Shown here piece after piece: positions 44,315 to 64,000 of a stretch of DNA of 64,000 bases. The DNA is from a virus, in IMG/VR virus record IMGVR_UViG_3300037851_000500, positions 48,112 to 112,111 of that record. The stretch is one strand, 5' to 3'. The position numbers and the translations under genes were made by a program. The notes beneath the pieces are model-generated. The model saw only the letters and a program-made list of their open reading frames with translations, did not search any database and was not told the DNA's origin. Position 1 is the stretch's first letter. Each line of letters starts with the position of its first letter.

Positions 44315-44326
44315 GAACTAATTACA

Positions 44327-45310: not shown

Positions 45311-45599
45311 AAATAGAATTGGAAAATTTTTTATAGGAACTAAATATTTAGAAAAAGAACCAAATTTAGTAATGAGAATAATGGGAAAATGCATCATTGT
45401 AGAAGCTATTAGTCACTATCATACAAACTCAATAGAATACATTGCATATAGTCCATATTTTGAACCTAAAGAACAATATGAACGTGGAAATTTTTATAAT
45501 ATTGAAGTAACTGAAGATGAAGAAGGAGTAAAATCTTTTAAATTTGTAAAAGTAATGGACGAAGATAAAATAAAAGTACTAAGAGTAATAACATTTTAA
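45288..45599 (+). CDS. Hypothetical phage protein
   Basis: Start likely ATG 45288 after GAGG. Confidence 0.5.
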   Translation: MLKNPIIENRIGKFFIGTKYLEKEPNLVMRIMGKCIIVEAISHYHTNSIEYIAYSPYFEPKEQYERGNFYNIEVTEDEEGVKSFKFVKVMDEDKIKVLRVITF

Positions 45600-45611
45600 A
45601 GGGGGCCAATT

Positions 45612-46472: not shown

Positions 46473-46668
46473 AACTAAAATGCCAAAAATTGAAATGTTT
46501 ATAGATTCAGAAGGAAAATTTCGTTTTAGAATAATAGCAAGAAATGGGAAAACACTTTGTCAAAGTGAGGGGTATTCAAGAAAAACAGATTGTACAAAGG
46601 CGATCCATGCTTTAACAGATGCAATGTTACAATATGAGTTGGAAAATATTAATATTGTGATGGTATAA
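46465..46668 (+). CDS. YegP/DUF1508 family protein
   Basis: GKFRFRIIARNGKTLCQSEGYSRK..C..AI; start likely ATG 46465. Confidence 0.8.
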   Translation: MAKTKMPKIEMFIDSEGKFRFRIIARNGKTLCQSEGYSRKTDCTKAIHALTDAMLQYELENINIVMV

Positions 46669-46891
46669 ATATGAGTGAAAACTATTTAGTAACTCAAGGG
46701 CAATTATTAGTTATAAAAAAATTAATTGAACTTGCTGAAATACACCCAATTGTTATAGATGATGCTATAAGGGATATAGACAATATTTTAAAAAATCAGC
46801 ATGTTTTTACTTCTAAAAACTCAATTGAAAATAATGTTATAAATATAAAATTATTAAGTAAACATATTAAAAATTTAGAGGATGATGGCAA

Positions 46892-47206
46892 ATGAGATTT
46901 GTATTTGATTTAGACGAAACAATTTGTACCAATTATGGAACAAGTGATTACACAAAGTCAAAACCGTCTTATATAATGGTAGGTATAATTAATAAATTAT
47001 ATGAAAAAGGGCATTATATTGAAATAAGAACCGCAAGGGGAAAATCCAGTGGAAAAGACTGGAGAAAACTTACTAAAAAACAACTTAAAGATTGGGAAAT
47101 AAAGTTTCATAAACTAAGTTTTAATAAACCAAGTGCAGATTTTTATATTGATGATAAAGCTCTAACACCAAGGATGTTTTTAGACAAATTTGCTTGGACA
47201 GACTAA
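46892..47206 (+). CDS. HAD-superfamily phosphatase (capsule-biosynthesis phosphatase-like)
   Basis: FDLDETIC (DxD), TARG, KP.ADFYIDDKA. Confidence 0.8.
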   Translation: MRFVFDLDETICTNYGTSDYTKSKPSYIMVGIINKLYEKGHYIEIRTARGKSSGKDWRKLTKKQLKDWEIKFHKLSFNKPSADFYIDDKALTPRMFLDKFAWTD

Positions 47207-47407
47207 TGAAAACATGGAAAGTAATATACTATTCTATTGTTCTTTCCCTTATAATATCTTCATTTATAATTCTTAATAAAACTTTTGACAAATTACATAT
47301 AATTATAGAAGAAAAAAATATAGAAATATCTGTGTTAAATTATAAATTATTAAATTGTAAATTAAACACAATAAATGAAATAAACTCTGAAAAGGCTAAC
47401 AATACTG

Positions 47408-47725
47408 ATGAATGATTTATCTGATGACAAAAAATCAGAATTATGCTTGAAATGTCTAAAGTGTTGCACCTATATTGCTGTACCATCTATAATAGACTCA
47501 AATAATGCATTTGTTGTAAACTTTTATAAAACCAGAGGATGTAAAACATTTGTTCACAAAAATATATTAATGATTGTTATTGAATATAAATGCCCACATT
47601 TAACAGAAAATGGTTGTTCTATTTATGATAAAAGACCTATAATTTGTAAAAATTATGATGGGAGGTTAGACGAAACCATAAAGGTTATGGGGGATATTTG
47701 TTTGTGGGAAAAAGAAAATGGATAA
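47408..47725 (+). CDS. YkgJ-family CxxCxxCC cysteine-cluster protein
   Basis: CLKCLKCC..CPHL..GCSIYDKRPIIC. Confidence 0.8.
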   Translation: MNDLSDDKKSELCLKCLKCCTYIAVPSIIDSNNAFVVNFYKTRGCKTFVHKNILMIVIEYKCPHLTENGCSIYDKRPIICKNYDGRLDETIKVMGDICLWEKENG

Positions 47726-48365
47726 AAAATATATAATAGCAATTGGTGGGGCTGTTATAAAAACAGCAAGATATGAATTAATAGAAGCGATTCAAATAGG
47801 AAAAGCTGAAATACTTATCCACAATGGAGGATCTATTTTCCATGATTTTCAGTTAGCTACTGAAATTTTACCAAATAAAAACCATTCTTATCCAATATCT
47901 GAATTGATGAATTCAAGAAAACAACTGAAAAAAACAAGTAATTTAATCAAAGACTTTTATAAAAAGGCTATAGCCCCCACAGGATCAATAACCCATTTGT
48001 GCCAAACATTAGATATACCCGTTTTAATTTTTACTGGTTTAGCTTGTGACTGGTGGCAATTTGAATTTAAAAGTTGGAACTCCATTGCTTTTAAAGCAAA
48101 AGAACATTTTGAATTTTTAAAAAATCGTTTTGCTTCAGACAAATTTAATTATTTATGCATGGGATCTGCGGTAATACACCCAGAAGTATTTTTAAAAGCT
48201 CTTGCCTTATCTGGAGCAAGCAATAAACAAAATTGGTTTACAGCAGATGTTGTTGATTTTTTAGATATGTACAGGCCAAGAACCAGAGTATCTATTTATG
48301 GTAAATATTATCAAATGGAACATAGAGATTTTTTAAATAAATTAAACAAAGGGGAATTACCATGA
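47718..48365 (+). CDS. Deoxyhypusine-synthase-like fold protein of unknown function
   Basis: IGGAVIK..HNGGSIFHDF..GSAVIHPEVFLKAL..DF..MYRP motifs; family recognised from memory. Confidence 0.55.
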   Translation: MDKKYIIAIGGAVIKTARYELIEAIQIGKAEILIHNGGSIFHDFQLATEILPNKNHSYPISELMNSRKQLKKTSNLIKDFYKKAIAPTGSITHLCQTLDIPVLIFTGLACDWWQFEFKSWNSIAFKAKEHFEFLKNRFASDKFNYLCMGSAVIHPEVFLKALALSGASNKQNWFTADVVDFLDMYRPRTRVSIYGKYYQMEHRDFLNKLNKGELP

Positions 48366-48515
48366 CAAAAAAAGAACTTCTTAAAATTTTAACTGATAAG
48401 AAAATAAAAGAAGATACTGAAATAAAAATTCTATGTACTACATATAGAGCTATCCCAGTAGAAACAGCATATTTTGATAAATCTGAAAATCAATTTATTA
48501 TAGAGACTAATTAAT

Positions 48516-48932
48516 ATGACTACCACATTAATAACTGGATGTTTTGATATACTTCATCCTGGGCATATTTATATATTGAAAGAAGCAAGCAAATTTAATG
48601 ACCAACTGTATGTTGGGTTAAATTCAGACGAATCTATAAAAAAATTAAAAGGAAATTCTCGACCTATAAATGATTTTTGGTATAGATTTAAAGTTTTATC
48701 AGGAATAAAATATGTTAATAATATTTTTAAAATTGAGGAAACACCAGAAAGATTAATTCATATATTAAAACCAAACACCATTGTTGTTGGTGGGGATTAT
48801 ACGCCAGAAAAAATTATTTGCAGAAAATATGTTTTATCTTATGGTGGAAGGGTAGAAGTTATACCAAGATTAGAAGAATTTAGTACAACCTCCGTTATAA
48901 AAAAATTTATGCATAGTAGTGGTACACTATAA
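48516..48932 (+). CDS. rfaE2: Heptose-1-phosphate adenylyltransferase (HldC / RfaE domain II)
   Basis: TGCFDILHPGH, VGLNSDESIKKLKG..RPIN, GGDY, STT motif. Confidence 0.9.
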   Translation: MTTTLITGCFDILHPGHIYILKEASKFNDQLYVGLNSDESIKKLKGNSRPINDFWYRFKVLSGIKYVNNIFKIEETPERLIHILKPNTIVVGGDYTPEKIICRKYVLSYGGRVEVIPRLEEFSTTSVIKKFMHSSGTL

Positions 48933-49936
48933 TGAAATTAATTATATCCTTTATGCAGAATTCTCCAGAAGTAACTTTATTAAAAAATTTATTTTGTTTT
49001 ATTGATACTGATGATCCAACAAAAATTCAACAAATAGAATTTCCAGATGAATTTCAAAAATATCTTCCTATTCATGGAATGGGGATGACATGCCTAAATA
49101 ACACCTTTTGTTTGGGTATTATTCCATTTCGTGAAAGACTTACTTCATCTATTCTTATTATTGATTTAATTTCTGGAATTTCTACTGTAGAACCAGTTTA
49201 TTCAATAAAGGGAATTCACAGCATATTTGGTATAGATGATTATCGTTTTTTAGCTAATAGTACCCAAACAGATCAAATTGTAGAAGTAACCATATTTAAT
49301 AATAAAATTGAATTTATAGATGTAGTTTATTCATTAAGAAATAAAAACATTTCCACTGTTTTTAGTCATAAGGACATAATTAGTTATCATATAGATGAAA
49401 AAGTGGATGATAACTTTCATTTAAACAGTGTTTTTATAAATAGTAATAAAATATATTTTACAAGATTTTGCATGTTACAAGAAGATAAACAAATAATTAA
49501 TTCGGGAAATGTTTGTTATGTAGATGATAATAATACTTTTTATATTTTAAAATCTGAACTAAATCACCCCCATTCTGTTTATGTGGATTCTCAAAATAAT
49601 ATTTTATTTTGCAATTCAGCAAATTTTGAATTAATTAATTTTACTAAAAATCAAATTATTACATGCCCAGGATATACACGCGGAATATGTGAAGATAAAT
49701 CAAAAGGGGGATATTGGGTGGGTATATCCGCATATAGGAAATTTTCAAAAACACAAAATAAATGGGTATCAATTTGTAGAGAAGATATTCCAAAACAAGA
49801 ATGCGCCTCTATCCAGTTTATAACATATGATGGGGAATTAAAAGAAAATATCAGTATTAACACAGCAAAGGAAATATTTGAAATTATACCATTTAAAGAG
49901 GGTAATTGGGGAAATATTGTTGATACTAATTTATAG
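48932..49936 (+). CDS. Beta-propeller protein (DUF4915-like)
   Basis: HLNSV, LNHPHS, CNSA, PGYTRGI..WVGIS motifs; coupled to the HldC gene. Confidence 0.55.
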   Translation: MKLIISFMQNSPEVTLLKNLFCFIDTDDPTKIQQIEFPDEFQKYLPIHGMGMTCLNNTFCLGIIPFRERLTSSILIIDLISGISTVEPVYSIKGIHSIFGIDDYRFLANSTQTDQIVEVTIFNNKIEFIDVVYSLRNKNISTVFSHKDIISYHIDEKVDDNFHLNSVFINSNKIYFTRFCMLQEDKQIINSGNVCYVDDNNTFYILKSELNHPHSVYVDSQNNILFCNSANFELINFTKNQIITCPGYTRGICEDKSKGGYWVGISAYRKFSKTQNKWVSICREDIPKQECASIQFITYDGELKENISINTAKEIFEIIPFKEGNWGNIVDTNL

Positions 49937-49949
49937 GAGGTAAAATATT

Positions 49950-50447
49950 ATGGTTGCTACTGTTAAAAAGGCAAAAACTTATAAAGTTAAAAAAACTCCA
50001 AAAAAAGAACCGGAGTTAATTCAAAAATTTTATAGGGTAGATCCTAAAACCAAACAAAAGTATAAAGCCGGTATTTTCTATGCTGTATGCCCAGATAGGT
50101 CCTCTGCATTTGCTAAAATTTTAATTGGTTTCTCTTTTTGTAATAAACATGCTGGTGACAGATATGATTATGTAGATGGTAAACATATAAAAGGACATGG
50201 TTTAATTTCTGCTAAAAAAAGAGCATATAGATGGCAAAATATTAGCTGCGTTCATGTTGGTGGAAAAAATGGATTTCCCGGTATTGTGGTTGATATAGAA
50301 GAATTTGTTTTAATTCCAACATTTGCCGTTACAGCATTAGTTAATTTTATTATTAGGTGTGAAAAATACTTTAAAAAACCTGCAAATTTTTGGGCTGGAA
50401 AATTTATAGATCATTTTAAAATTAAAGCATTAATTAAAGATATTTAA
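49950..50447 (+). CDS. Hypothetical protein
   Basis: 165-aa ORF with GGAGG RBS. Confidence 0.55.
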   Translation: MVATVKKAKTYKVKKTPKKEPELIQKFYRVDPKTKQKYKAGIFYAVCPDRSSAFAKILIGFSFCNKHAGDRYDYVDGKHIKGHGLISAKKRAYRWQNISCVHVGGKNGFPGIVVDIEEFVLIPTFAVTALVNFIIRCEKYFKKPANFWAGKFIDHFKIKALIKDI

Positions 50448-50632
50448 GGTGGTGATTGTATGTTCCCTATTAAATATTTACTTACCCCAATTTTTGTTTT
50501 TCTATTACTTTATCCTTTTTATCATATAAATAAAATAGGGGGCTATATGAATTGGCCTACTGCTTTTTGTCTTGTTGGTTTGACTTGGGCCTTTGTTGCT
50601 TTTTTTATTTTTTTATAAAGGGGTATATAACA

Positions 50633-53015
50633 ATGGCTTTTAAAAGATTTGATGTTCGACAATACCCAAAACTACAAAAAGCCTGGGGCTGGTATAATAT
50701 GGGAATGCTGCTTGGGGTAGAACCATTACGTTGCGGGGCTATTGCAGCAGTAGAAAACCATACAGGAGAACCTTGGGAAACAGCTAAAAAGTACATGGAA
50801 GTTCATAAAGTCATTGTAACCCCAGTAATTATTATTAAAGGAAAGTAAAAATGTACAAAATAATTAAAGGATCAGTATCTTGTCATTGTTGTTTTTCATA
50901 TACTATAATAGACACTAATAAAAAAGGAGATGTTCACGATCAGATTATATGTGAATGCTTTGAGAAAGAATTAGCAGAATTAATTTGTTCTGTATTAAAC
51001 GAACAAGATTATCGTAAATTATATATTGGGTACTTAATTGGATCTATATCTAAAGAGGAATTTAAAGAAAAGGCAAAAGAATTTGCTGAAGATTTAGATA
51101 TAGATAATGAAATTGAAAAAATTAAAAGAGAATTATAATGGCAAAGTTATATTTAATTTCAAAAGGACCGTATAAAGGAAAGAAGTGTATTTTAAAAAGA
51201 AAAGATATATCAAATGATATGTGGTTTGTTTCTGAACATCTAACTAATGAATTGTTTTTTGTACAAGATAACGAAATCTCAGAGTTTAAATTAAAAAAAT
51301 ATAAACTTAAAGTTAAGAGGTAAATATGGATACTATACCTGATTTTAAAATATATGATAAAGTTAGAATATTAAATTCATCTTCTGTTCCTGAAGAATTT
51401 AGAAATAAACAAGGGCTTGTTTTATATTGCACTGGTGTTGTAGAAAAATATTATAAACAATATAGGGTTAGATTTGATGATAATACTGAAAGAAATTTTC
51501 CTGCTTATCAAATGTCAAGAATAGGGGGGATTTATTAAAATGTTTAGTTTCTTTCTTGGTTTATTTATAGGATATGTAGTGGGTGTAATATCTCTTTATA
51601 TATATTTAGATAGAAACGGATATTTTTAAGGAGGAATTTATGGATGTTTATGATTCTTCATCTCTGCCATCAGGATCTAAAGTTTGTAAGTATGAGGATG
51701 TTCTTAAAAGGGAGGAGCAATTAAACAGTATAATTGATTCTTATCAAAAGTTTCTTTTTTATCTTGTTACTACATTTAATGATATAAAAGAAAAGGCAGA
51801 AGTTTTATTAGAGAAAAAAGGAGCTAATGAAAAATGAATGATGCTATATTAACAGAAACAGGAAAAAAGTTATATATGGATATTCTTGCTGGAGAAAAAA
51901 AAGGAGGAGTATATTTTAAAAAACATGGAGAAAGGTTATTTTTACATTTTAATGCCATTAAACTTAAATTAAATAAAGAATCTATCGGTTTAGTAGGAAG
52001 TGAAGCAGAAGTAATTTATTGTTTTGATGATTTAGAATTAGCTAAACACAAATTTCCTGTAAGTTTGTATAGTAATGATGTTATAAGTTTATTAGGAACT
52101 GAAGGGACAATTCCATTTAAAACTAAAGAGTAAATATAAAAAACAAAGGAGCATACAATGGCCCACCAAAGAAAAGTATTTGTAATTGAAATTAAAAGAC
52201 CATATGGAAGAAAATGGTTTGAAATGGAATGTCATTGTTCCCTTAAAATAGCAAAATCTGAAGCTAAACATTGGAAACAATCAAATCCTGATTCTTCAAT
52301 TAGGGTGGTTACATATTACCCAAGAGATGATGGGTGCTTTTATATGATTGCTCAACCTACGATTTTATAAATGGGGGGGTACACATTGGAATCAATTTGA
52401 TGATGACGGTTTAACTCCAATGATATTTAATGATTTTGTCCATGAGGTCTTAGGCTCAAAAGGAAATTTTTGTGGATCTAAAACCTCTCATATAATTTCT
52501 GATTTAGAAAAAGAAGTTGAAAGATTAAATTTAGAGGTTAAGCATTTAAGAAAAACAATTACAAAATCTGTTAGTAAGATATTATACGATGCTGCTGTAA
52601 AGGAATTGGAAGATAGAAATAAACAATTGGAATTTAAATTAGATAAATTACGGGGTAAATATCAGGCTTTAGCCTTACACCATGATGCTGCTCATAATAA
52701 GGAGTATAAATAATGTTATTTTATAGATTTAGTGACCTTGCCACAGAGAATTTAGATGTACTTATCTTTGAACACCAATTTGAATTAATAAAAGAAACTA
52801 AATGTGGGTATTGGATTGGTGATTCTCTTGGTAAACATTGGGTTTCTAAAACGTCTAAAAAAAGATTTGCTTATCCTACAAGAAAGGAAGCCATTGAATC
52901 TTTTATAGCCCGCAAGAAACAACAAATTAGATATATGAAAATTAAAGCAAAGAGGGCTGAAGTTGCCCTTGAAAAAGGATTAAAATTGTTATTTACTATT
53001 GATGAATCTGAATAA
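50633..53015 (+). CDS. Run of about nine small hypothetical genes (50633-50848, 50851-51138, 51138-51323, 51326-51538, 51640-51837, 51834-52133, 52158-52370, 52348-52713, 52713-53015)
   Basis: Tightly packed same-strand ORFs, most with RBSs; two look KOW/SH3-like. Confidence 0.5.
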
Positions 53016-53076
53016 TTAAAATTCTCCAATATCCTTCTAAATTATTCAATTTTCCTGTAAAATCTAAAATATCCTT

Positions 53077-53129
53077 ATAAAAAGCCTTATATTTCCAGTA
53101 TTTTTACTGGTTATATAGGGCTTTTTTAT
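53077..53129. terminator. Bidirectional terminator ending the rightward gene block
   Basis: ataaaaagccttatat..ccagta-tttt-tactgg..atatagggcttttttat. Confidence 0.7.
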
Positions 53130-53133
53130 TTAT

Positions 53134-53503
53134 ACTTGGATTATTATATTTAAAATCCAGTAAATAAAAAATAAAAATCCCCTCTTTATATCTTTCCCTT
53201 CTATATATACCCAGTCTAATAAGAAGATCCTACCCTATTATATAATGCTCCTCTCTTTATCCTTATATATAGTCTAATTAATAAATAATATAATGTTACT
53301 TGGATTATGGTATTATAAATTTATTTACTATAAATAAAATTTTTATAATAGGATAATATAAATTTCTACTTGGATTATGGTAAATTGAATTTTATTATAA
53401 AGTAAATAATAAAGTGTGACTTGGATGATGTAAATACAATTTTTATTATAAAATAAATAATAGGAAATGACTTGGATTATACAAATGTTATTTTTATTAT
53501 AAA
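53134..53503 (+). repeat. Array of five ACTTGGAT boxes; last three in exact 51-bp register
   Basis: Boxes at 53134, 53298, 53368, 53419 and 53470; TTTTATTATAAA conserved in the last three units. Confidence 0.85.
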
Positions 53504-53540
53504 ATTATCGGGGAGGTACTTTGTACCCATTTGCCAATAT

Positions 53541-53718
53541 CAATTGAACGGTCGGCCAATTGCGCTAATTGAATTGCAATTGAATTGCCAATTGATAAAT
53601 GGACTAATACATAATACAAGAGACAAATAAAAACTAATTAGCAATTGATAACTTACAATAGAAAAATGCATTATTAAATAATGCCAATTGATATAATGAC
53701 AATTGACAATTGCAATTG
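53541..53718. repeat. Dense CAATTG cluster
   Basis: 9 CAATTG in about 180 bp by manual count. Confidence 0.9.
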
Positions 53719-54454
53719 ATATATCGTTAAGGCTATACATTATTAGTTGGATTAAGTTTATAATACCTAATAGACCATATAAACCGTTTTTAATTGACTC
53801 CACTATTAATCCACTATGCATAGCTGCTATATAATAGACCATAGCTATTGACTCCACTCTATTAATATAAAAGGTTTAATAAGGACCATCCACTATATAT
53901 AGACTAATAAATTAAAAGCTATTAGACGCTATATATAAAGAGATATTATTTAGAGTATAGGTTTATATTGGCTTTTATTTTTCCTTTTACCTATTGGCTT
54001 ATAATGCTTTTTAATATGGTTATCTCTTTTTGTATTATGCTATCCTTAAATTCAATATTACCCAATTTAAAAATACATAATTCAAAAATGATAATCTCTT
54101 TTATCGTGTTTTTTCCTTTTAGGTATTCTAATTTCAATTGATTTAATTTTTCGCTTAATAACATTTTTAATTTTCTCCTAATTAAAAAGTAATAGCCGAT
54201 ATAAAATATATATCGGCTATTAGCTAATTAACTTTAGAGAAAAAAGTTATATATGGAGTATATTAAATAAATACGTCATATCGTTTAAAAATTCTTGTTT
54301 ACTTGGAAATGTTATATCGTGTAAAGATAATAATAGACCTATTAAAAGAGCTATTAGTAGTCTAAAAAACCAATTGCTAAAGGTTATAATGGCGCTAGAT
54401 AATATAAAGCCATTTTGATTTTTCATTTTTCTTTTTCCTTTCCTTTAGTTTTTT

Positions 54455-54484
54455 CCTGCTAGCTCATTAATTTGAGCTAGCAGG
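54455..54484. repeat. 30-bp hairpin, copy 1
   Basis: cctgctagctcattaatttgagctagcagg. Confidence 0.9.
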
Positions 54485-54603
54485 AATTAGATTTTTTATT
54501 TGGTTATATTTTTGATTATGGAATAAATAAAACCAATAAGGATAATAAAAAAAATCACTATAAAAGTTATATTTGGATAGTTATAAATCATTGCTTTTTT
54601 CCT

Positions 54604-54801
54604 TTATGCACTATAAAGTTTTGATGCTATTGGTAATTGCCGATAGGATCTAAAAAAAACATTTGTTCTAGCATGAATTAGTGCAAATTCGATAAAACGT
54701 AGCTCTTGCCAATTAGTTGAAACTAGATAAGGATTGAAATTTGTATTTTTCACTTTTTTAAATATCTTTGCAGTAGTGTTCAAAAGTGATTTTTTTTTCA
54801 T
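54604..54801 (-). CDS. Small hypothetical early protein
   Basis: 65 aa with AAAGGA RBS. Confidence 0.5.
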   Translation of the reverse strand: MKKKSLLNTTAKIFKKVKNTNFNPYLVSTNWQELRFIEFALIHARTNVFFRSYRQLPIASKLYSA

Positions 54802-54830
54802 TGTTATTTTTTCCTTTCATTTGGTTTTTT

Positions 54831-54860
54831 CCTGCTAGCTCATTAATTTGAGCTAGCAGG
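54831..54860. repeat. 30-bp hairpin, copy 2 (identical to copy 1)
   Basis: cctgctagctcattaatttgagctagcagg. Confidence 0.9.
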
Positions 54861-54875
54861 CATATTAGTTGAAAG

Positions 54876-56021
54876 TTATCTGATATTAAAAATTCTATGC
54901 AATTCCATTTTGTTTTCATTGTAAAAGTCGATAAAGCTAGCTACATCGGACTTTTTAATTTCGTATGTTTCTTTAAGCCAATCAAAAACTAGGCTAATTG
55001 CACCCGGTTTATCTGCAATTGTATCTTCTAAATTTAGCACGTTTACGACTTCTTTCATATCGTGAGAGTTATTATTTGTTAATCTAGCCTGAAATGATTT
55101 TATATTCTGATTAAATTTTATTTTTTCTGCCTGCTTTTCTTCTATTGATTTTTCGGTTTTTTCTACTTTTAAAGACTGTCTTTTAAGCGGAGTCAATTTG
55201 CCTTTAGTCGTGGTAGGTGCATTGGTAGGTGCATTGGTAGGTGCATTGGTAGGTGCATTGGTAGGTGCATTGGTAGGTGCCTGAGTGGTAGGAGCAAAAT
55301 CATTAATTGCTTTGACTATTGCCTCTTTTGCTCGGCCAATAGAACGCATTGCGACGATATAAACATTGTCACGTTTATATTGGTTCCAAATTTTACCAAA
55401 TGACTCTCCAGCATTCGCAAAATCTAATTTTTCTAGTATTTCGTTCCATTCACTTTTCACTTGATTGTATTCTGTATTTCCGCAAAATTTTCCTTTAAAG
55501 TTATCCATGAATAAATTGAAAAGTTTTTTATTATCATCGGTAATATTTTCCGCTTTTTTAAGAATAACTTTAGGCGATCCAGCAGGCGATCCAGCAGGCG
55601 ATCCAGCAGGCGATCCAGCAGGCGATCCAGCAGGCGATCCAGCAGGCGATATGCGACATGCAATAGAATCAATTTGACTTCGTATCGCTTGTGAATTTTT
55701 GGCGATACTCTCAATCATAATGTTATTTTCCGCATATGCTTTGCTCATATTATCGATCAAATTGACAATTGATTTTTGATCGCTGGAAATTAAACCGATT
55801 TGAGAATGTATTCCTTCGAGTAATTTTCCATGATTATTAATTAGTTTTTCCAAGTTTTCTACTCTAGCGAATGCTTGGATATTTAAATTAGCTGTTGTAA
55901 TTGCTTCTTGTTTCTTTTTCTCAATCAATTCGTTAGTTCGATTAATGTTGATTGAATTTTCTGTTTTTTCTACTTTACCATTTTTTTCTTGTGCTAGTTT
56001 AATCCTTTCAGCTAATGTCAT
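54876..56021 (-). CDS. Early coiled-coil protein with SPAG and APTN repeat linkers
   Basis: 381 aa; AAAGGA RBS; first gene after the leftward promoter. Confidence 0.7.
   Translation of the reverse strand: MTLAERIKLAQEKNGKVEKTENSININRTNELIEKKKQEAITTANLNIQAFARVENLEKLINNHGKLLEGIHSQIGLISSDQKSIVNLIDNMSKAYAENNIMIESIAKNSQAIRSQIDSIACRISPAGSPAGSPAGSPAGSPAGSPAGSPKVILKKAENITDDNKKLFNLFMDNFKGKFCGNTEYNQVKSEWNEILEKLDFANAGESFGKIWNQYKRDNVYIVAMRSIGRAKEAIVKAINDFAPTTQAPTNAPTNAPTNAPTNAPTNAPTTTKGKLTPLKRQSLKVEKTEKSIEEKQAEKIKFNQNIKSFQARLTNNNSHDMKEVVNVLNLEDTIADKPGAISLVFDWLKETYEIKKSDVASFIDFYNENKMELHRIFNIR
55211..55280. repeat. Perfect 12-bp tandem repeat (APTN)
   Basis: tggtaggtgcat x5 plus a partial unit. Confidence 0.95.
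55572..55650. repeat. Perfect 12-bp tandem repeat (SPAG)
   Basis: aggcgatccagc x6 plus a partial unit. Confidence 0.95.
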
Positions 56022-56153
56022 TGTCTTAATCCTTTCATTTGGTTTTTTTGCGCTTGCTATATTGGTGGAAATTAGTTCAAGCGCTTGTTAATATTTTTTA
56101 TCCACCGTTGTTTTTGGTTGCATGATATTTTCATGCCCGCAAAAACTATAGGC

Positions 56154-56182
56154 ATTTTAAACTTTTTTATTTTAATTGTCAA
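56154..56182 (-). promoter_or_regulatory. Leftward sigma70 early promoter
   Basis: Minus strand TTGACA-N17-TAAAAT. Confidence 0.7.
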
Positions 56183-56245
56183 TAGCCGATTAATAAATTT
56201 TTTCATAAGGAAAAATCTAATAATTTCCAGTAGTTATGAGCTAAT

Positions 56246-56274
56246 TTGACTTTTAGGTTTTTTAGTGGTAAAAT
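56246..56274 (+). promoter_or_regulatory. Rightward sigma70 early promoter (divergent pair)
   Basis: TTGACT-N17-TAAAAT with TG extension. Confidence 0.7.
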
Positions 56275-56570
56275 TTGTCTTTAAATTCAATTGGTTAGGA
56301 AGTCAATCGGATTATAAAAAAATCAATTGAATTGACTCCAATTAAATTGACTCCAATTGAATTGGAAAAAATATTTTTTCAAATTTCAATTGTCAATTGC
56401 CGATGGTCCAGGCGGCCTATATAAATGGATTTAATTAATATATTTATATTTTCTGCTACAAGTTATAATCAAATACCTATATCAATTCAATTAGTAGAAA
56501 ACTCAAATTGCATTTAACATATCAATTGCATATCGCAATTGATAAACTACAAAAAGAAAGGAATTGAATT

Positions 56571-57347
56571 ATGAGCAAGGCAATTAGAATTCATTTGGCA
56601 AAAGATGGCAAAACTTGTTTTTGTGGATTGGTAATTAATAAGCAATTACAAATTGCCAGTAAAGGAGAGAACTTTTTTGAATTGGATAATAAACCAATTC
56701 GGTTTAATGGAATTTGCAAGAATTGCGGTAGTTTGTTTGCAAAAAATCCAATTTATCGCAATTACCTTGAAAAAGTGAAATATAATGAGTCAATTGTGGA
56801 AATTCAAGATAAATTACCTAAAACAATTAGAAGTATGCGGTATTATTGCAGCAAACGGCGCTTGAATTGGAATTCTAAGAATACCAAACCAATTGATAAA
56901 CTATCTACACTACAAGCAAAACCAAATACTGAAATTGAGACAATTCCAATTGATTCTGAAATTGTACTTAATAAATATGTCAATACTGGCAATCAAACCG
57001 AAAAGGAATTGAATATTACCAATAAAACCGATGAAATAATTGAATTGACAGAAGTAGTTAATAAACCAATTGAAAAAACAGATAAAGGAAAAATGCGCGA
57101 ATTGAGAAAACAAGGATTATTGCCTAATTCATTGAATTGGAAACAAATTCCAGAAGCAATTGACAGAATTGAGGATGGGCACCCAATTGCAATTGTTAAA
57201 GGTTTTAATAATAGCTGGAAAGTAATTGAGGAATTTACTGGTATTAACAATTCAAACAATTCATGCGTTAAGGAATTGACAGGGTGGGTGCCAATTGAAT
57301 TGGCAAGGAAAATTTACAATCAGGCAATTATCAATAGAATATTCTAA
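56571..57347 (+). CDS. Hypothetical early protein (Zn-binding N-terminus)
   Basis: H..CFCG..CKNC; AAAGGA RBS. Confidence 0.6.
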   Translation: MSKAIRIHLAKDGKTCFCGLVINKQLQIASKGENFFELDNKPIRFNGICKNCGSLFAKNPIYRNYLEKVKYNESIVEIQDKLPKTIRSMRYYCSKRRLNWNSKNTKPIDKLSTLQAKPNTEIETIPIDSEIVLNKYVNTGNQTEKELNITNKTDEIIELTEVVNKPIEKTDKGKMRELRKQGLLPNSLNWKQIPEAIDRIEDGHPIAIVKGFNNSWKVIEEFTGINNSNNSCVKELTGWVPIELARKIYNQAIINRIF

Positions 57348-57364
57348 CATATAACAATTACAAT

Positions 57365-57422
57365 AAATTACCATGATTCCAATTAGTGCTTAAAATCAGG
57401 CCAATTGGAATCATGGTAATTT
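57365..57422. terminator. Long inverted repeat after 56571..57347
   Basis: aaattaccatgattccaatt...aattggaatcatggtaattt. Confidence 0.6.
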
Positions 57423-58252
57423 TCCATTAAATAAGGAATTAAAATCATGCAAACGTCAATTGAATTAGTGCCAATTAGCAATAAGAATTTAAAGGTATTT
57501 AAAAAGCAATTTAAGCCAATTGATTGTAATTTGAAATTTAGGCGTATGCGTAAAGGTGATAAGCAAATTCGCCGGATTAATAGACTAATAACTTTGTGGA
57601 TTAAAGATAATTTTTAAGCTATATAAAATCATAGAATAAATAAAATCACCCAATCTTGCAATTAATAGGAGAATTGAATTATGCGCTATTATTATATAAT
57701 ATTTTCAAAGCGTTTTTGGAAATTTTGTACTCGAATTAGTGTAAATCATAAGGCATGGCATAATTGGATAAATTACAATCCTATCAATTGGTATCTTGAT
57801 AATTAAGATTATAAATTTGACAAATAGGATAAAATCATGGTAAAAGACGATTATTTCACAATTCTACAAGCAATTGCAATTTTGGCAATGGTATGTTTTA
57901 TGTTTAGTTATTAATCCAATTACCAAATGATTTGTTTTCTTGCAATTGAATTGAAATATGCTATAATATAATCAAAGGAAAGGAATTCAAATCATGGCTG
58001 ATAATTATGATGAAATTATCAATTGGTTATTCGGTGAAATAGCAATTGACGATAATTTAAAGCAAAAAATGTATAATGCAATTCAAAAAGAAGATTTTAA
58101 GGAATTGCATCATTTAGGCTATCAAATTAATTATCAGAATCAAGAAAACATTTTTAATTAGTATTTTATAAAATATCCCTAATTGCTTATTTTATTGTAT
58201 AAAGCAATTAGGGATTTTTATTTTCAAAATTCCAATTGGAAAGGAAATTAAA

Positions 58253-58492
58253 ATGGCTATTACAATTGAACAAGCAAAGCAATTGACTTATCGTGACGAA
58301 TTGCACTATAATTCAATTAAAAATTCAAATGGAACATGCGCCAGAATCAGAATAAATGGCAAAGTCAAATTGTGGAAACGCAATCCCAATCGAATTGAAA
58401 TTCCTTATAAGCATGGTTTATACGATTATGGATATTTAACCGAGAATAATATTAATCAATTCCATTTTCCTTCCGATTGCCTTAATAAATAA
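58253..58492 (+). CDS. Hypothetical early phage protein
   Basis: RINGKVKLWKRNP..IPYKHGLY; RBS. Confidence 0.6.
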   Translation: MAITIEQAKQLTYRDELHYNSIKNSNGTCARIRINGKVKLWKRNPNRIEIPYKHGLYDYGYLTENNINQFHFPSDCLNK

Positions 58493-58730
58493 TCTGTAAT
58501 TACAATTCGGACTAATCCATTAGGCTAAAAATTAGCTTATTGGATTAGTGTTTTTTCTTTTAGGCATGGTTTTATATGCCATAAGATTTTTATTGCCTTA
58601 AAATGCCTCTCAATTAACTTAAAATTGAAAGGAATTATGCCTATGGAAACGGTTTTTGTTTTATTGGTATTGGGAATTGGGGTCTTAATTATAATTGTAA
58701 TTGATAATTCATAGGAAAGGAATTAAAATC

Positions 58731-58994
58731 ATGGGAATTGAATACATTAGAATTTTCGATGCTGGAATTGAATATGATTTTGCTGAAAGGTTTATAGTCG
58801 AATTGGATAAAACTTATATTTATGGCATGTCAATTGACTGCAATATGCCAAATGGTTATTGCCAATTTTTAGGCAATAAAAGCGAATTTAGCAATTGGCT
58901 TGAATTAGTGCGCGGTCGAAAAATAATTAAATTAGCCGATGCACCAGCATCAGTAATTAAGCAGATTGCGCTAATAAATAAGATATTTGAGTAA
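58731..58994 (+). CDS. Hypothetical early protein
   Basis: Start likely ATG 58731 after AAAGGA. Confidence 0.55.
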   Translation: MGIEYIRIFDAGIEYDFAERFIVELDKTYIYGMSIDCNMPNGYCQFLGNKSEFSNWLELVRGRKIIKLADAPASVIKQIALINKIFE

Positions 58995-59060
58995 TATAAC
59001 TAATAACAAGCCAAATCAAATCTATTAATTGAAATTATTACAAACGAAAGGAGAATTGAA

Positions 59061-59270
59061 ATGAACTATGAATTAAGATTTGATATTTGTGAAGCATAGT
59101 ATTTATATGCCAGCCACTATCATTCTGGACAAAATTCTAAATTGTACAGTAAATTGGGACAATTAATCAATATTGGATTTAAACCGGCACCAGGATTAAG
59201 ATATGAATTGTTAACAGAACAGGGGAAGGAAATATACCAGAGACTTTGTAATATTAGAAAATATCAATAA
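59061..59270 (+). pseudogene. Small early gene interrupted by an in-frame TAG
   Basis: AAGGAG RBS; MNYELRFDICEA*YLYASHYHSGQNSKLYSKLGQLINIGFKPAPGLRYELLTEQGKEIYQRLCNIRKYQ; TAG at 59097-59099. Confidence 0.6.
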
Positions 59271-59309
59271 ACTAATTACAAACAAATTCAAATGGAAGGA
59301 GATTAAAAA

Positions 59310-59537
59310 ATGCCAGTAATTAAATGTTACCAGGAAAAAACGTGTGATAATTATATAATTACAATTGACAATTCCGTATTTGAAATGAATGCAAATGCAA
59401 ATCAGCCAAATGGATTGAATATGTACTGTGGAGAGGAATTGCAATTAAATTCCAGTCAATTAAAAGAATTACAATTGGGTGATTTGCCTAAAGGAACATT
59501 AATCGGAATCATTAGACGATTACAAGAATTAAATTGA
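59310..59537 (+). CDS. Hypothetical early protein
   Basis: AAGGAG RBS; MNANANQPNGLNMYCG resembles MSIDCNMPNGYCQFLG in 58731..58994. Confidence 0.55.
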   Translation: MPVIKCYQEKTCDNYIITIDNSVFEMNANANQPNGLNMYCGEELQLNSSQLKELQLGDLPKGTLIGIIRRLQELN

Positions 59538-59875
59538 CGCAAAAAATTTATAATCAGTTTGAATCAATTATGAGTGAAATTGTGAATAACTGATTACAAG
59601 GCCAATCAAATCCAGGTATTTAAATCAATTGAAATTAAAGGAGAATTGGAAAATGATTAAATTTAATATTCCAATACCGAATGCTACTAAATACAATTGC
59701 ATTGAATTTTGTTCTGCATGGATGTCTAATTATGGTGGAACTATTGAAAATGCTGTTAGAGTATGGATGCAGTATTTAAAAGAAAATAAATAAAGGATTT
59801 ATCGGCAATTGGTTAAAAGCAAAAAGTACCAATAAACTAATTACAAGCAAATTCAAATCAGGAAGGAGAATTGAA

Positions 59876-60529
59876 ATGAAAAAACGTCACATTCCAATTA
59901 GCGAAAATATGTTTAATGGCGAATTGGTACAGGCTAAATGTTATTGTGGTAAAGTAATTACTGATAAAACCGAATTGGTTTGGGCTGGTGGAATTGAAAT
60001 TAGGATATTTCGTAAATATGAGGATAAGGATATTCCTGATTCAAATGTAAAATTGGAAAATATTTGTGGTAATTGTTTTAGAAAAAAATATAAAGAACCA
60101 TACAATTATGGAATTAACAATTGGAATAGAGTAATTAATAAAAAAACGCCGGTTAAATATATATCACAAGTTCTTAACATTTCAATTGGAACAGCTAAAA
60201 TCATTAAGGAAATTGTTATTACAAATGAATTGGGCTTTGTATTAAGATTATTGGGTAAAGATCGTATGGATTTTGGATCAGGAAGTGGAGTTAATTATTC
60301 AATTAAAATGGAATTAATTGATAAGATTCTGCGCGGATTTGGAATTGAAGCAATTATACTTCCCAATATATGGATTGATAATTACTGGATGGATAATTGT
60401 GGAATATATGTAAATACAGGGGAAACGTACTCAATGACAATTTTATTTGATACTGATAAAAAAGAATTCATTTGCACTTCATGGGGCGATTTTTATGAGA
60501 CATTGGAATCACGATTGAAAATCAGGTAA
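59876..60529 (+). CDS. Hypothetical early phage protein
   Basis: YVNTGETYSMTILFD..SWGDFYE motif; N-terminal CYCG..CGNC. Confidence 0.6.
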   Translation: MKKRHIPISENMFNGELVQAKCYCGKVITDKTELVWAGGIEIRIFRKYEDKDIPDSNVKLENICGNCFRKKYKEPYNYGINNWNRVINKKTPVKYISQVLNISIGTAKIIKEIVITNELGFVLRLLGKDRMDFGSGSGVNYSIKMELIDKILRGFGIEAIILPNIWIDNYWMDNCGIYVNTGETYSMTILFDTDKKEFICTSWGDFYETLESRLKIR

Positions 60530-60537
60530 AATCACGC

Positions 60538-60590
60538 ATTTGTGGTGCATTTGACATGGCATAAAAACTGTGTTACAATGCACCACAAAT
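60538..60590 (+). promoter_or_regulatory. sigma70 promoter bracketed by a perfect 14-bp inverted repeat
   Basis: atttgtggtgcatt / aatgcaccacaaat flanking TTGACA-N17-TACAAT. Confidence 0.75.
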
Positions 60591-60658
60591 AGGGAATTTC
60601 CCTACAAGTCAAATCAAATCCCACTAATTAAAATCACCCAAACCAAAGGAGAATTGAA

Positions 60659-61375
60659 ATGAACAATTATGCAGGAATTGATTACAGCAGGGGAATGGCA
60701 AATGTCAATTATAAAACTGGAATTCATTACGGAGTAATTAATCAAAACAAAGTAGGGGAATCATGGTTTGAATCATCAGAAGCAGATTACGGAATGCCGG
60801 GATGTTCAAAATGTGGTTATGAATTTAAGAAGTCAAAATCACCCACTAAATGCCCCAATTGTGGATATAGACCAAATGATGATTCTGAATTTTATAGAGA
60901 AGATCCAATTGAATTTTATTATAATCAAGATGGATATAAAATTATTCAATCTGGAGATGATACTGATTTATTTATTCTTAAATCACCATATTTTACCTAT
61001 TGCCAATTCTGTAGTCCATGCGCTCCTGGTGCTGGTTATATTATGAATTCAGTTAATCCAGAACATGGTGGAATTAAAACCTATTGCTTAGGACATGATT
61101 GGTTTGAATCACAGGAAACGGGCAATTGGATTGATTGCAAATATTGTAATGGTACAGGATACCGTAAAATCACTGAAATTCCACATTTCAATAAAGAATC
61201 ATTTATTGCAAATGGCGGAATGATGCATGGTGATGATAAAGTTTATTGTTGGAATTGTAATCGTGATCCTCAAATGGCAAATGCTGGTAAAATCAAAGAG
61301 AGAATTAATAAAGCACCATATCCGGTCTATTCCGTAAAAACTGGCAAATTGGTTGAACCTACAATTGATAACTGA
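60659..61375 (+). CDS. Cys-rich hypothetical early protein
   Basis: CSKC..CPNC, KSPYFTYCQFCSPCAPGAG, CKYCNGTG. Confidence 0.6.
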   Translation: MNNYAGIDYSRGMANVNYKTGIHYGVINQNKVGESWFESSEADYGMPGCSKCGYEFKKSKSPTKCPNCGYRPNDDSEFYREDPIEFYYNQDGYKIIQSGDDTDLFILKSPYFTYCQFCSPCAPGAGYIMNSVNPEHGGIKTYCLGHDWFESQETGNWIDCKYCNGTGYRKITEIPHFNKESFIANGGMMHGDDKVYCWNCNRDPQMANAGKIKERINKAPYPVYSVKTGKLVEPTIDN

Positions 61376-61450
61376 TAATTTAATTTGAATTGAAAGGAGA
61401 AAAATCATAATTGATCCATTTAATCCAGTAATTGAAAGGGGGGCGGTATT

Positions 61451-61762
61451 ATGAATTATACACCCGGACCTTGGAAAGTAGATTTTAGTCGTAAGCCGTA
61501 TTCAATTGCACCCAATAGAATTGACCCTACTTCTGTTTTCAATTCCCCTTTAGGAGTTGTATTTCGTTCCCATGTCAAGGGCAAAGAATCAGAGCAAATT
61601 GCCAATGCTAATTTAATTGCAGCAGCACCCGAAATGTTTGAAGCATTACAACGGGTCGGCTGTCAATATTGGGCTTGCCCTGGACCTGATAAACCAATTG
61701 AAGATATGGCTACTTGTTTTGTATGTGCAACAATTAGAAAAGCTGAAGGAAAGGAGGATTAA
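61451..61762 (+). CDS. Hypothetical phage protein (TPGPW..ANANLIAAAPE type)
   Basis: Motif common in small phage early proteins. Confidence 0.65.
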   Translation: MNYTPGPWKVDFSRKPYSIAPNRIDPTSVFNSPLGVVFRSHVKGKESEQIANANLIAAAPEMFEALQRVGCQYWACPGPDKPIEDMATCFVCATIRKAEGKED

Positions 61763-61763
61763 A

Positions 61764-62144
61764 ATGCCATTAAGACAAGAGGAACAAGAATCAATTAATA
61801 AGCAATGGGATTCAATTCAATCTAAAATGGATGAATTACAGGAATTAAGAAAAAAGCTCAATTGTTCATTGGCAATTCAATCCCTATGGCCTGAAGCATT
61901 TAAATTAGGTCCAGTTAAAACTTATTTTGTAGGCAATTTATATAAAATTAGGGAAATGAGATTTAAAATTGAAGCTGGAGATGATGATGCAGAATATAGT
62001 TTATTTGAAATCCCTGAAATTCTATTGGATCGGCAAATTGAATTACAGATTGAAAAAGCAGATTCAATGGTAAATAGGGAAATTTGGGTAAAATTTAAAA
62101 ATGAAGTTTATGATCATAAAAGGCGCTTGACTTTGGGGAAATAG
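61764..62144 (+). CDS. Hypothetical protein
   Basis: Start likely ATG 61764 after GGAGG. Confidence 0.55.
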   Translation: MPLRQEEQESINKQWDSIQSKMDELQELRKKLNCSLAIQSLWPEAFKLGPVKTYFVGNLYKIREMRFKIEAGDDDAEYSLFEIPEILLDRQIELQIEKADSMVNREIWVKFKNEVYDHKRRLTLGK

Positions 62145-62155
62145 TGTGTTACATT
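62127..62155 (+). promoter_or_regulatory. sigma70 promoter related to the 60551 promoter
   Basis: TTGACT-N17-TACATT followed by gcatcacaa. Confidence 0.6.
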
Positions 62156-62193
62156 GCATCACAATTAGTTAACCACAACCAAACGAAAGGAGA

Positions 62194-63015
62194 TTGCAAA
62201 TGAGAACTTTTACTGGAGAACGTAATTACGAGAATTTTTTGAAGTATGTTGAATCAAGCAAAAATGGAGATGATTGCCCAATTGATAATAATACCAGAGT
62301 AATTAGGCATATTGGGCATGTTGCAATTAAGTTGCATAATACAGAAATTGTTACTTATTATAAAAGTGGCTGGATTGAATTAAATTCTGGTGGTTGGCTT
62401 ACAGTCACAACTAAAGATCGAATGAATACATATAGTCCAATTAGAGTATGGGCTAATAAACGTGTTTGGTATGTTACATTTAATAATAAAACTTATCTTT
62501 ATGAAGATCATATGTCATTTAATCTTGAAAGTGGAAATGTTTACGGTGGACCGGATAAATCAGAATTAGCTAAAGAGTGTAATCCACAGCAAATTAAAAA
62601 CAAGGAAAAAGAATTAAAAAGAATTAATAATTATGTTAAAAACTTTATTGATAAATTCCTTAAAGGTGAAATTGCACCTATGAGTTCAGGTGATTGCTGG
62701 TATTGTTTATCGCATGTACAAGGATCAGGAATTCCCCCAATTCAAACGCTCAATTCAAATGGTGTAGTTACTGATGGATTTGATGAAACGCACCATATTC
62801 GATCACATATTAAATCAAAATACTATGTTCCTTCCCTACTATTCAATGCAATTAAAGAGACTCCACATTTATCTCAAATGGATAAATATACAATTACTCA
62901 GATTTATAATGGCGGGAAAATTGAGAATAATAGTTGGTTAGATTTAACTGGTCGAAATTTGAGATCAACTTTGTCTCGTTACATTCGCAAGCAATTGGGT
63001 TATCAAATTAGCTGA
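62194..63015 (+). CDS. Hypothetical early phage protein
   Basis: AIKLHNTEIV..LNSGGWLTVTTKDRMN motif; AAGGAG RBS. Confidence 0.6.
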   Translation: MQMRTFTGERNYENFLKYVESSKNGDDCPIDNNTRVIRHIGHVAIKLHNTEIVTYYKSGWIELNSGGWLTVTTKDRMNTYSPIRVWANKRVWYVTFNNKTYLYEDHMSFNLESGNVYGGPDKSELAKECNPQQIKNKEKELKRINNYVKNFIDKFLKGEIAPMSSGDCWYCLSHVQGSGIPPIQTLNSNGVVTDGFDETHHIRSHIKSKYYVPSLLFNAIKETPHLSQMDKYTITQIYNGGKIENNSWLDLTGRNLRSTLSRYIRKQLGYQIS

Positions 63016-63062
63016 AAGGGAAACTTTGCAAGTAATTAAAACAAAATAAAGAGGATCAAATT

Positions 63063-63910
63063 ATGAAAGAAAAACAAATGATAGTAACAGTTATTTACTT
63101 TAAAAGAAATGAAAAATCAAAATTAGAAAAAGGAATTGCAGTTTTAATTGATGGAAATGTACAATTGATTATAGACGCAAATGGTAAAAGTGTATCTTTT
63201 AATATATGGGATTTTAATTTACATTATGAATCAGGGTGTATTAATATTAAAGTATAAACAAAGGAGATAAATTATGAAATATAAAATTTTTCAATTAGAA
63301 TTTCACATTGAAAATGATGCTTTTACTACTAATTGTAAAAAAAAGGAAATTGCCAGAATATTACGGCAAATAGCAAATAGAATAGAATTGGAACACCCAA
63401 TTAGTTCCAATAAAATCATGGATATTAATGGCAATTCAATTGGAAGGTTTGGAATTATCCGAAAGGGAATTTAAAAATGGCTACTTATAGAATTTGGGGA
63501 AGTTATCAGGGGAAAAAGAGGGAATTGATTGACACCGCAACCAATCCAAAATCAGCAATTTATTTAAAAAATGAATATCAAATGGCATTTGGAAAGGATT
63601 GGAGATTAACAATTGTACCAGATCCTTACACTAAATTTGAAATCCAGGGTGTTCAAACTTTTAGAAGTTACAAATAAACGAAAGGAGCAATTAAATGGAT
63701 GAGTCAAGATTGCAATTATGGTATAAAACAGGCGGAATGGTTAAATCCAATAGGTGGGTAAATAAGTGGGAAACTAAAAACAATAAAATTAATCCTTTAA
63801 TTGGAGTTTTAATTGAAGATCGTTGCCCACAATGCGGAGCAAGAACTTGGCTAAATGCAAAAGGCAATCAATGTTGCTGGAATTGTAATTGGGAAACCCT
63901 TATTAACTAA
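63063..63910 (+). CDS. Four small hypothetical early genes (63063-63257, 63274-63474, 63477-63677, 63695-63910)
   Basis: Packed ORFs, each with an RBS. Confidence 0.55.
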
Positions 63911-64000
63911 ACGAAAGGAGCAAAATTATGAGTGAAATAGTTGAAACAATTGACTACAAGAGCTATCAAATTAATATTCACCAAGATATTGATCCAATTG

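Follow-up and report, generated by a model that had tools for sequence, protein, structure and literature searches.

CAATTG as a selected, position-dependent sequence signal on the early-gene arm of a clade of uncultured freshwater phages

Short words repeated in DNA are known from several systems. HIP1 (GCGATCGC), the highly iterated palindrome of cyanobacteria, is spread over the whole chromosome and is tied to cognate methyltransferases. The pac site of phage P1 is a stand-alone element of 4+3 TGATCA/G hexamers that is read by a pacase encoded alongside it, and proteins of the ribbon-helix-helix (RHH) type bind short palindromic subsites in arrays. The first-step-transfer (pre-early) region of phage T5 combines small, poorly conserved early genes with better conserved non-coding repeats (bioRxiv 10.1101/866236). 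Here we describe the palindrome CAATTG in the early-gene arm of an uncultured phage, studied in a 64,000-nucleotide stretch of DNA (the window) that corresponds to bases 48112-112111 of the 112,111-bp single-contig virus record IMGVR_UViG_3300037851_000500 (genome G000). A preliminary description of the window, made from the letters alone, had reported that the region 53541-64000 is strongly enriched for CAATTG even within coding sequence, and had proposed a selected signal; the enrichment is borne out and is larger than reported, as the rich zone crosses the assembly junction. Full-text literature searches on CAATTG in phages and on iterated or over-represented palindromes in phage early genes turned up no account of such a pattern.

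The first and last 254 bp of the record match each other at all but one position; the assembly is therefore circular, and the point at which the window stops is arbitrary. The CAATTG-rich zone runs from 53541 across this circular junction to approximately 4 kb into the genome, a length of about 14 kb. The counts given earlier all held when repeated, with 9 copies in 53541-53718, 26 in 56288-58285, a further 23 from there to the end of the window and 6 in 44-53 kb; base composition alone (zero-order expectation) predicts 0.34 per kb. The whole window contains 102 copies, whereas shuffles that preserve dinucleotides give 36.1±5.1, with a maximum of 48. With the remaining 98 kb of the genome as reference, the zone holds 74 CAATTG where 10.2 are expected (7.3-fold), 51 GAATTG where 5.2 are expected (9.8-fold), 85 AATTGA where 14.8 are expected (5.7-fold) and 192 copies of the 5-mer AATTG where 45 are expected; the one-off variants TAATTG and CAATTA are enriched in the zone as well. 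The density of CAATTG is 5.2 per kb in the zone and 0.7 per kb in the remainder, the latter near the shuffle expectation. It reaches approximately 13 per kb in the first 2 kb of the early operon and declines to about 3 per kb before the polymerase gene, while the GC content of the zone matches that of the rest of the genome (about 30% throughout).

The enrichment persists under codon control. Within each of 22 early genes, called by open frame and ribosome-binding site, synonymous codons were shuffled such that every protein and each gene's codon usage were kept; the genes contain 45 copies of CAATTG, compared with 20.8±3.2 in these shuffles (z 7.6) and 7.4±2.7 in codon-order shuffles (z 13.9). 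The possibility raised in the preliminary description, that the excess would vanish once codon usage was controlled for, is thus not what is seen. Thirty of the 45 genic sites lie in the frame NCA-ATT-GNN, which is the cheapest at the protein level, and the other two frames are occupied too. Sites also occur in spacers and terminator stems, and AATTG words build the stems of the terminator hairpins between early genes. CAATTG has altered both the codon choice and the dipeptide content of the early proteins: TTG accounts for 35% of leucine codons in the zone and for 10% in this genome's replication genes, and ATT for 78% and 54% of isoleucine codons, respectively, with essentially equal amino-acid composition. 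The seven Pro-Ile pairs of ORF 56571 are indeed all encoded CCA ATT, as first noticed.

The word is also symmetric with respect to strand. Raw counts in the zone favour the sense strand (51 GAATTG vs. 22 CAATTC), and the zone coincides with one long transcription unit, both of which could point to the RNA, where AAUUG might be a cleavage or binding site (RNase E-type A/U-rich, or for a translational repressor) that times the decay or translation of early mRNA. Inside the genes, however, 36 GAATTG and 17 CAATTC compare with 19.7 and 8.2 in the shuffles (1.8- and 2.1-fold); the bias is therefore what codon constraint predicts, both orientations are up about twofold, and the signal is strand-symmetric, which fits a word read on duplex DNA rather than on RNA. 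The start regions quoted in the preliminary description (AAGGAGAATTGAAATG) are present in the sequence, and GGAGAATTGAA stands ahead of the ATG in five genes of this genome, as an RNA signal might; the placement of GAATTG between ribosome-binding site and ATG is nevertheless a feature of this genome and not of the clade, the word being present in just 7 of 141 start regions across five genomes. The densest cluster, moreover, lies outside the operon, and conservation is specific to the palindrome rather than extending to AATT words generally. A role at the RNA level is accordingly very improbable. A translational operator of the T4 RegA type was rejected on the same start-region count and on a search that returned no RegA homologue. 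Promoter -35 boxes were likewise considered and rejected: the zone contains about 15 AATTGAC, and the bases after TTG depart from the TTGACA consensus.

The same word marks the same arm in related phages. A profile of the polymerase exonuclease protein found 16 viral loci, and four whole records (G001-G004) were fetched, which together with G000 are the five genomes referred to throughout. In 12 of the 16 loci this protein is 41-49% identical and CAATTG occurs at 1.6-5.3 per kb upstream of its gene (3.4-5.3 in ten of the 12) and at 0.9-3.1 per kb downstream of it (all 12). The more distant loci among the 16 have no CAATTG enrichment, and no alternative word is obvious in distant L015 and L018. 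In each of the five genomes CAATTG is the most enriched 6-bp palindrome (211 copies vs. 2 of the reversed control GTTAAC in G001, 110 vs. 0 in G004). When aligned on the polymerase gene, the five density profiles coincide, with a sharp rise 14-19 kb upstream followed by a decay that in some genomes extends well into the replication genes. An unbiased k-mer search of the five early arms returned AATTG, AATTGA, CAATTG and GAATTG as the most consistent words, together with the ribosome-binding site. Arm proteins are 22-44% identical across the genomes that share this syntenic enrichment. The closer relatives L040 and L041, from another metagenome set, carry 4.3-6.1 CAATTG per kb in the syntenic stretch, and the polymerase exonuclease protein of the closest relatives is 76-80% identical. 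Similar local enrichment in related phages, which the preliminary description had suggested looking for, is thus present as the same word with the same profile in a clade of uncultured freshwater phages of 90-112 kb. Mis-assembly, the other objection anticipated there, is excluded as the source of the zone: the relatives' independent assemblies carry the same arrangement, and a single contig of a source-sample run covers 44001-54410. The region is present as contigs in two freshwater metagenome runs, with one single-nucleotide polymorphism between strains. Separately, TGATCA occurs 13 times where 1.8 are expected upstream of the polymerase exonuclease gene (24% identical protein) in a very distant, high-GC relative (L019 1-10000), perhaps a local palindrome enrichment of unrelated origin.

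Individual sites are kept by selection. In pairs of relatives with 93%, 87% and about 73% nucleotide identity, CAATTG is retained far more often than hexamers of the same composition, and more often than codon-phase-matched hexamers within 18 nt, at 85 vs. 68%, 80 vs. 53%, 49 vs. 21%, 45 vs. 21% and 48 vs. 24% (odds ratios 2.7-3.7, p 0.0001-0.003 in the five comparisons). Retention of TAATTG and CAATTA is not above background. For L040 and L041, the sites of the present genome are kept in 4 of 9 and 4 of 11 cases, in the expected direction and not significant. Since single sites are kept better than adjacent hexamers, the signal is a selected one, and these comparisons are direct evidence that the CAATTG hexamer itself is under purifying selection. 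When homologous early genes whose proteins are 35-44% identical are aligned, some sites fall in identical columns but most do not, so that sites turn over while their density stays, as is expected for a signal that acts through occupancy. Together with the codon controls and the conservation in five genomes (polymerase proteins 41-49% identical), the retention data uphold the proposal of a selected, position-dependent signal at the DNA level.

A non-adaptive by-product of biased repair, a foreign module or protein-level repeats could also leave a local excess, and two observations would sit well with such an origin: the one-off variants are enriched too, and in this genome the excess of the full palindrome over half-site independence is weak. 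The odds ratios over flanking in-phase hexamers argue against it, as do the syntenic enrichment in genomes of such divergent arm proteins and a GC content in the zone that matches the remainder. A short-patch repair drive towards CAATTG should deplete TAATTG and CAATTA, and that candidate was rejected since these variants are enriched instead. A by-product of this kind is the least credible of the explanations considered.

The strand symmetry, the palindromic form, the peak density in non-coding DNA (9 sites in 178 bp and 7 in 254 bp), the occurrence in all contexts, the conservation across the clade and the selection on single sites suggest that the word is read on double-stranded DNA. Our preferred explanation, put forward tentatively because the reader protein was not identified, is that the early arm is an array of binding sites for a sequence-specific factor acting on that arm. 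CAATTG, with the half-word AATTG on either strand, would be the recognition word that marks the early-gene arm of the clade; a single factor, probably dimeric and either phage-encoded or a host nucleoid protein, would bind the arm, with the non-coding clusters at 53541-53718 and 56288-56541 as high-occupancy centres and the 4-13 sites per kb inside early genes extending occupancy along it. The purpose might be a scheduled shut-off of early transcription or a coating of the arm against host attack. That a protein reads CAATTG, which protein this is and what its binding does are matters we infer, and of the roles listed in the preliminary description a protein loading site and a handle for silencing remain as best guesses.

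Candidate readers of the RHH type are suggested by RHH-like ORFs in or beside the zone in three genomes, those of G001 and G003 lying in the minus-strand block, and by a zinc-finger and RHH protein encoded late in the operon (L001:1324-1587) that matches PHROG repressor families (E 2.6e-6). Several observations weigh against the binding-array explanation. The RHH_1 Pfam matches in G000 and G001 do not reach the cut-off, and KRxNISI is common to the G001 and G003 RHH-like ORFs whereas the DNA-contacting strand in G000 differs although the word is the same. A search for a reader among the conserved early proteins identified none; the conserved 381-aa and 556-aa early proteins are helical and had no family or fold match in a sequence search of the Protein Data Bank (PDB), in a protein atlas or with structure models and Foldseek. 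In the zone of this genome, the full palindrome exceeds the product of independent preferences for C before and G after the core only as 74 to 62, so the unit read could be the 5-mer in either orientation; the same comparison is clearer genome-wide in G001 (211 vs. 147) and G003 (169 vs. 128). The spacing of sites has no 10-11 bp phasing and only the codon period of 3, so a regular helical protein filament is not indicated, and operator systems do not usually show a density gradient over 15-35 kb. As a separate observation, paired short helices in the model of the 556-aa protein look like helix-extension-helix modules, a resemblance without confirmation. Two further candidates were rejected: helical phasing or curvature, given the lack of a 10-11 bp periodicity between sites, and integration host factor (IHF) sites, the full consensus WATCAANNNNTTR being no more enriched than wrong-spacing versions.

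CAATTG stands out against a background of palindrome loss. Many 6-bp palindromes are absent from the five genomes, and the absent set differs by genome: AAGCTT occurs 0 times vs. 38 expected in G000, ACTAGT and ACATGT 0 vs. 37 in G001, and ATCGAT and AGATCT 0 vs. 25 in G004, yet both of the latter are common in G001, while CTAG and CGCG are lacking in G001 and G003. The premise that phages avoid 6-bp palindromes therefore holds here, and the strong, lineage-specific purging indicates that restriction pressure on the clade is real. A comparison of the zone with the remainder of the genome showed no heavier purging of other palindromes in the zone. As CAATTG is a classical type II site (MunI/MfeI), the word might be linked to host restriction-modification or methylation, with methylation used as a signal or a host enzyme engaged on entry; the purging would agree with this, as would P1 pac, which is regulated by methylation of its clustered hexamers. 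Under an active restriction enzyme, however, the recognised sites should disappear rather than accumulate, and CAATTG is enriched rather than depleted. The same word is found in five lineages with differing purged words, which argues against dependence on one host's system, and the methyltransferase families PF01555, PF02086 and PF00145 are absent from all five phage genomes. A host-enzyme link is on balance improbable. The lack of these canonical families also weakens a role of CAATTG as a phage-encoded modification target, and a role as a decoy for a restriction enzyme has no support. Independently of the word, a Methyltransf_24-type methyltransferase gene (393 aa) overlaps the start of a phage PDDEXK nuclease gene (209 aa) by one base (L001 15482-17292), a pairing that resembles a modification-nuclease pair, although this methyltransferase family is not a typical DNA methylase family.

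The features of the arm are listed in Table 1.

Table 1. Features of the early-gene arm, in window coordinates.
Feature	Position	Strand	Remarks
Terminator of the preceding plus-strand gene block	near 53.1 kb	+	about 860 bp of non-coding DNA follows
Five ACTTGGAT repeats	53134..53477	+	last four in tandem 50-70 bp units
Non-coding CAATTG cluster	53541..53718		4+1+4 sites in 178 bp, plus TAATTG/GAATTG variants
Four [AC]TCCACT[AC]T copies	53798..53895		iteron-like family beside the cluster; not DnaA boxes
Three small ORFs (57, 59, 65 aa)	53991..54801	-	no relatives at tblastn E<=1e-3
Conserved 381-aa all-helical protein (predicted)	54876..56021	-	CAATTG clusters on either side
Divergent control region, 549 bp	56022..56570		7 CAATTG (56288-56541, 254 bp), many AATTG half-sites
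First early gene, 258 aa	56571..57347	+	N-terminal Cys pairs; 8 CAATTG in 777 bp
Remaining early operon, about 16 small genes	57348..64000	+	most without known relatives

The sites of the non-coding cluster lie at 53541, 53557, 53577 and 53589, at 53642, and at 53685, 53700, 53707 and 53713, with a G-rich box immediately before the cluster and a GGTCGG box directly behind the first site. The cluster recurs in G001 (56273-56472) and G003 (10899-11024), where 5-9 CAATTG or NAATTG lie within 120-180 bp and the upstream end likewise has GGTCGG and a G-rich box. Its layout, with two sets of four hexamers separated by about 90-100 bp inside a 178-bp non-coding stretch, could mean that the cluster is a pac-like or terminus element, as could its presence in relatives and the sharp-edged, one-directional decay in five of five genomes; the gradient would then mark DNA often near a molecular end, serving end protection, cyclisation or recombination-primed replication, and the phage has recombination genes of its own (a RecA-like protein, a PDDEXK nuclease and a 5'-3' exonuclease). 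The large terminase gene, however, lies 22 kb from the cluster (28537-31074, minus strand, 845 aa). Contig depth over the zone is not raised (5.9 vs. 6.9 in an independent run, a crude measure) and so gives no sign of a long terminal repeat, and the sparse minus-strand block between cluster and operon is a misfit for a pure distance rule. A link to packaging or to DNA ends is therefore unlikely, if worth keeping in view.

Each tandem ACTTGGAT unit resembles a sigma-70 promoter (TTGGAT-N17-TATTAT), and ACTTGGAT is found twice beside the equivalent cluster of G001. With CAATTG and TCCACT, three repeat families thus lie within about 860 bp of non-coding DNA, the conserved 381-aa gene has site clusters on both sides, and replication genes follow directly downstream of the arm. 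This arrangement might represent a replication origin made up of the clusters, ACTTGGAT and the TCCACT repeats, with the 381-aa protein as initiator and the extra sites along the arm titrating it or handing it over. Against an origin stand the length of the word, six bases being very short for an iteron, and the GC skew, which turns at the strand switch near window 32-34 kb and not at the arm. The 381-aa protein resembles no initiator, either by family or by fold, and DnaA boxes, rejected also as a candidate in their own right, are not enriched in the non-coding region. We give an origin with initiator titration little credence.

The minus-strand block 53991-56021 is poor in CAATTG (about 2 per kb), and the non-conserved small ORFs within it are possibly recent additions, which would agree with the binding-array explanation. 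The 381-aa protein is homologous to the product of G001 57062-58249 (BLASTP E 2e-10) and has 31 homologues by hidden Markov model (HMM) search; it matches no Pfam family, and its model (pLDDT 76) had no Foldseek fold match. Its sequence has two low-complexity linkers, (SPAG)6 and (APTN)5, which join helical domains modelled with confidence, among them a single helix of 77 residues; these repeats are absent from relatives. Promoter-like sites in the control region face both ways, at 56246 (+) and 56182 (-), and relatives have equivalent long AT-rich regions at this position. In G001 and G003, weak homologues of the first early gene lie precisely where CAATTG density peaks. The operon runs on past the end of the window into genome 1-4 kb, shortly before the split DNA polymerase A gene, and nearly all of its genes are without family matches; Rfam has no family in 52500-64000.

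Other words and repeats in the zone were noted in passing. TTGCAA, which has the half-words in the opposite order, and TGCA are enriched in 53541-64000 plus genome 1-4000, with 17 TTGCAA in the zone of G000 where about 3.7 are expected; relatives have less of an excess. The zone also contains 5 copies of GCTAGC where 0.1 are expected, and two copies of a 30-34 bp GC-rich hairpin that includes this word (54453-54486 and 54831-54860) bracket the 65-aa ORF 54604-54801 on the minus strand; these paired hairpins could be a small mobile cassette or paired terminators.

The hallmark genes, which encode a major head protein, portal protein, large terminase, 1844-aa tape measure protein and J-like tail proteins, show by their sequences that this is a large tailed phage with a long non-contractile tail. 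None of the 50,697 records of an isolated-phage database gave a nucleotide match, and the prokaryote genome collection yielded no relative and no clue to the host. Downstream of the arm are genes for a split family-A DNA polymerase, an AAA ATPase, a RecA-like protein, an intein-bearing helicase and a primase. The polymerase is encoded in two pieces, an exonuclease/UDG-like gene (535 aa) and a polymerase-domain gene (408 aa), which are separated by a 241-aa ORF (L001 3876-7455). The terminase is at most 26% identical to those of isolated phages over most of its length, apart from an element inserted at residues ~78-432 that matches helicase- or homing-endonuclease-annotated genes of other phages and is, judging by sequence, probably an intein. 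Intein domains are also present in a DnaB-like helicase and an SNF2-type helicase (L002 4728-11622), and LAGLIDADG domains in the DnaB-like helicase and a primase. Counting the terminase and the genes of L002 4728-11622, four essential genes are interrupted in this one phage.

A clade purged of most palindromes thus keeps one of them at very high density, five to ten times background, on its early arm, which implies a sequence-specific reader on early phage DNA that current annotation misses. Identifying such a reader might show a new means by which phages protect, time or organise the part of the genome that is expressed first, and would provide a simple sequence-based marker of early arms in the genomes of uncultured phages. 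It is conceivable, though doubtful, that CAATTG is an address label, for which an undescribed dedicated reader coats, protects or silences the early-expressed and perhaps first-entering arm, with different lineages using different words; the reader might be an early phage protein, one delivered with the virion, or a host factor exploited by the phage, and the pattern, if this is true, would be a general, overlooked class of phage genome organisation.

Compared with the described systems, the arm shares parts of each. Chi resembles CAATTG as a short word whose density could protect incoming linear DNA, but Chi is asymmetric and orientation-dependent, whereas CAATTG is a palindrome with symmetric half-site enrichment, GAATTG and CAATTC being equally enriched after codon control. 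The RHH operator arrays, such as the MetJ met-boxes and the omega-protein heptads, likewise consist of short subsites repeated in either orientation at promoters; those known have 2-10 subsites at a promoter, as opposed to about 75 sites over 14 kb including coding DNA, and the RHH assignment here is weak and inconsistent between genomes. The pre-early arm of T5 is similar in placing fast-evolving small genes beside conserved non-coding repeats. T5, however, has long repeats of several kinds, paired DnaA boxes among them, and its arm forms a terminal repeat of 10 kb; in the present phage a single 6-mer runs all through coding DNA, the conserved repeats are not accompanied by an enriched DnaA consensus, the record closes over 254 bp, and depth, crudely measured from contigs, is not doubled over the zone.

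The P1 pac site is matched by the cluster at 53541-53718 in layout only, both being short non-coding elements in which two groups of hexamers, within about 160-180 bp, surround a core of about 90 bp. P1 pac stands alone, whereas the CAATTG cluster heads a gradient of 14-35 kb and is far removed from the terminase gene rather than in or beside the genes of the packaging enzyme. HIP1 is the nearest described phenomenon. Like CAATTG, it is a short palindrome far above expectation that occurs within genes, in all frames and against codon preference, and the excess over composition and codon expectation is of the same nature (102 vs. 36±5 in the window; 45 vs. 20.8 and 7.4 in early genes). HIP1, however, is genome-wide, whereas CAATTG, in a phage without a canonical methyltransferase family, is unevenly spread between zone and remainder, local, and graded in its profile in all five genomes.

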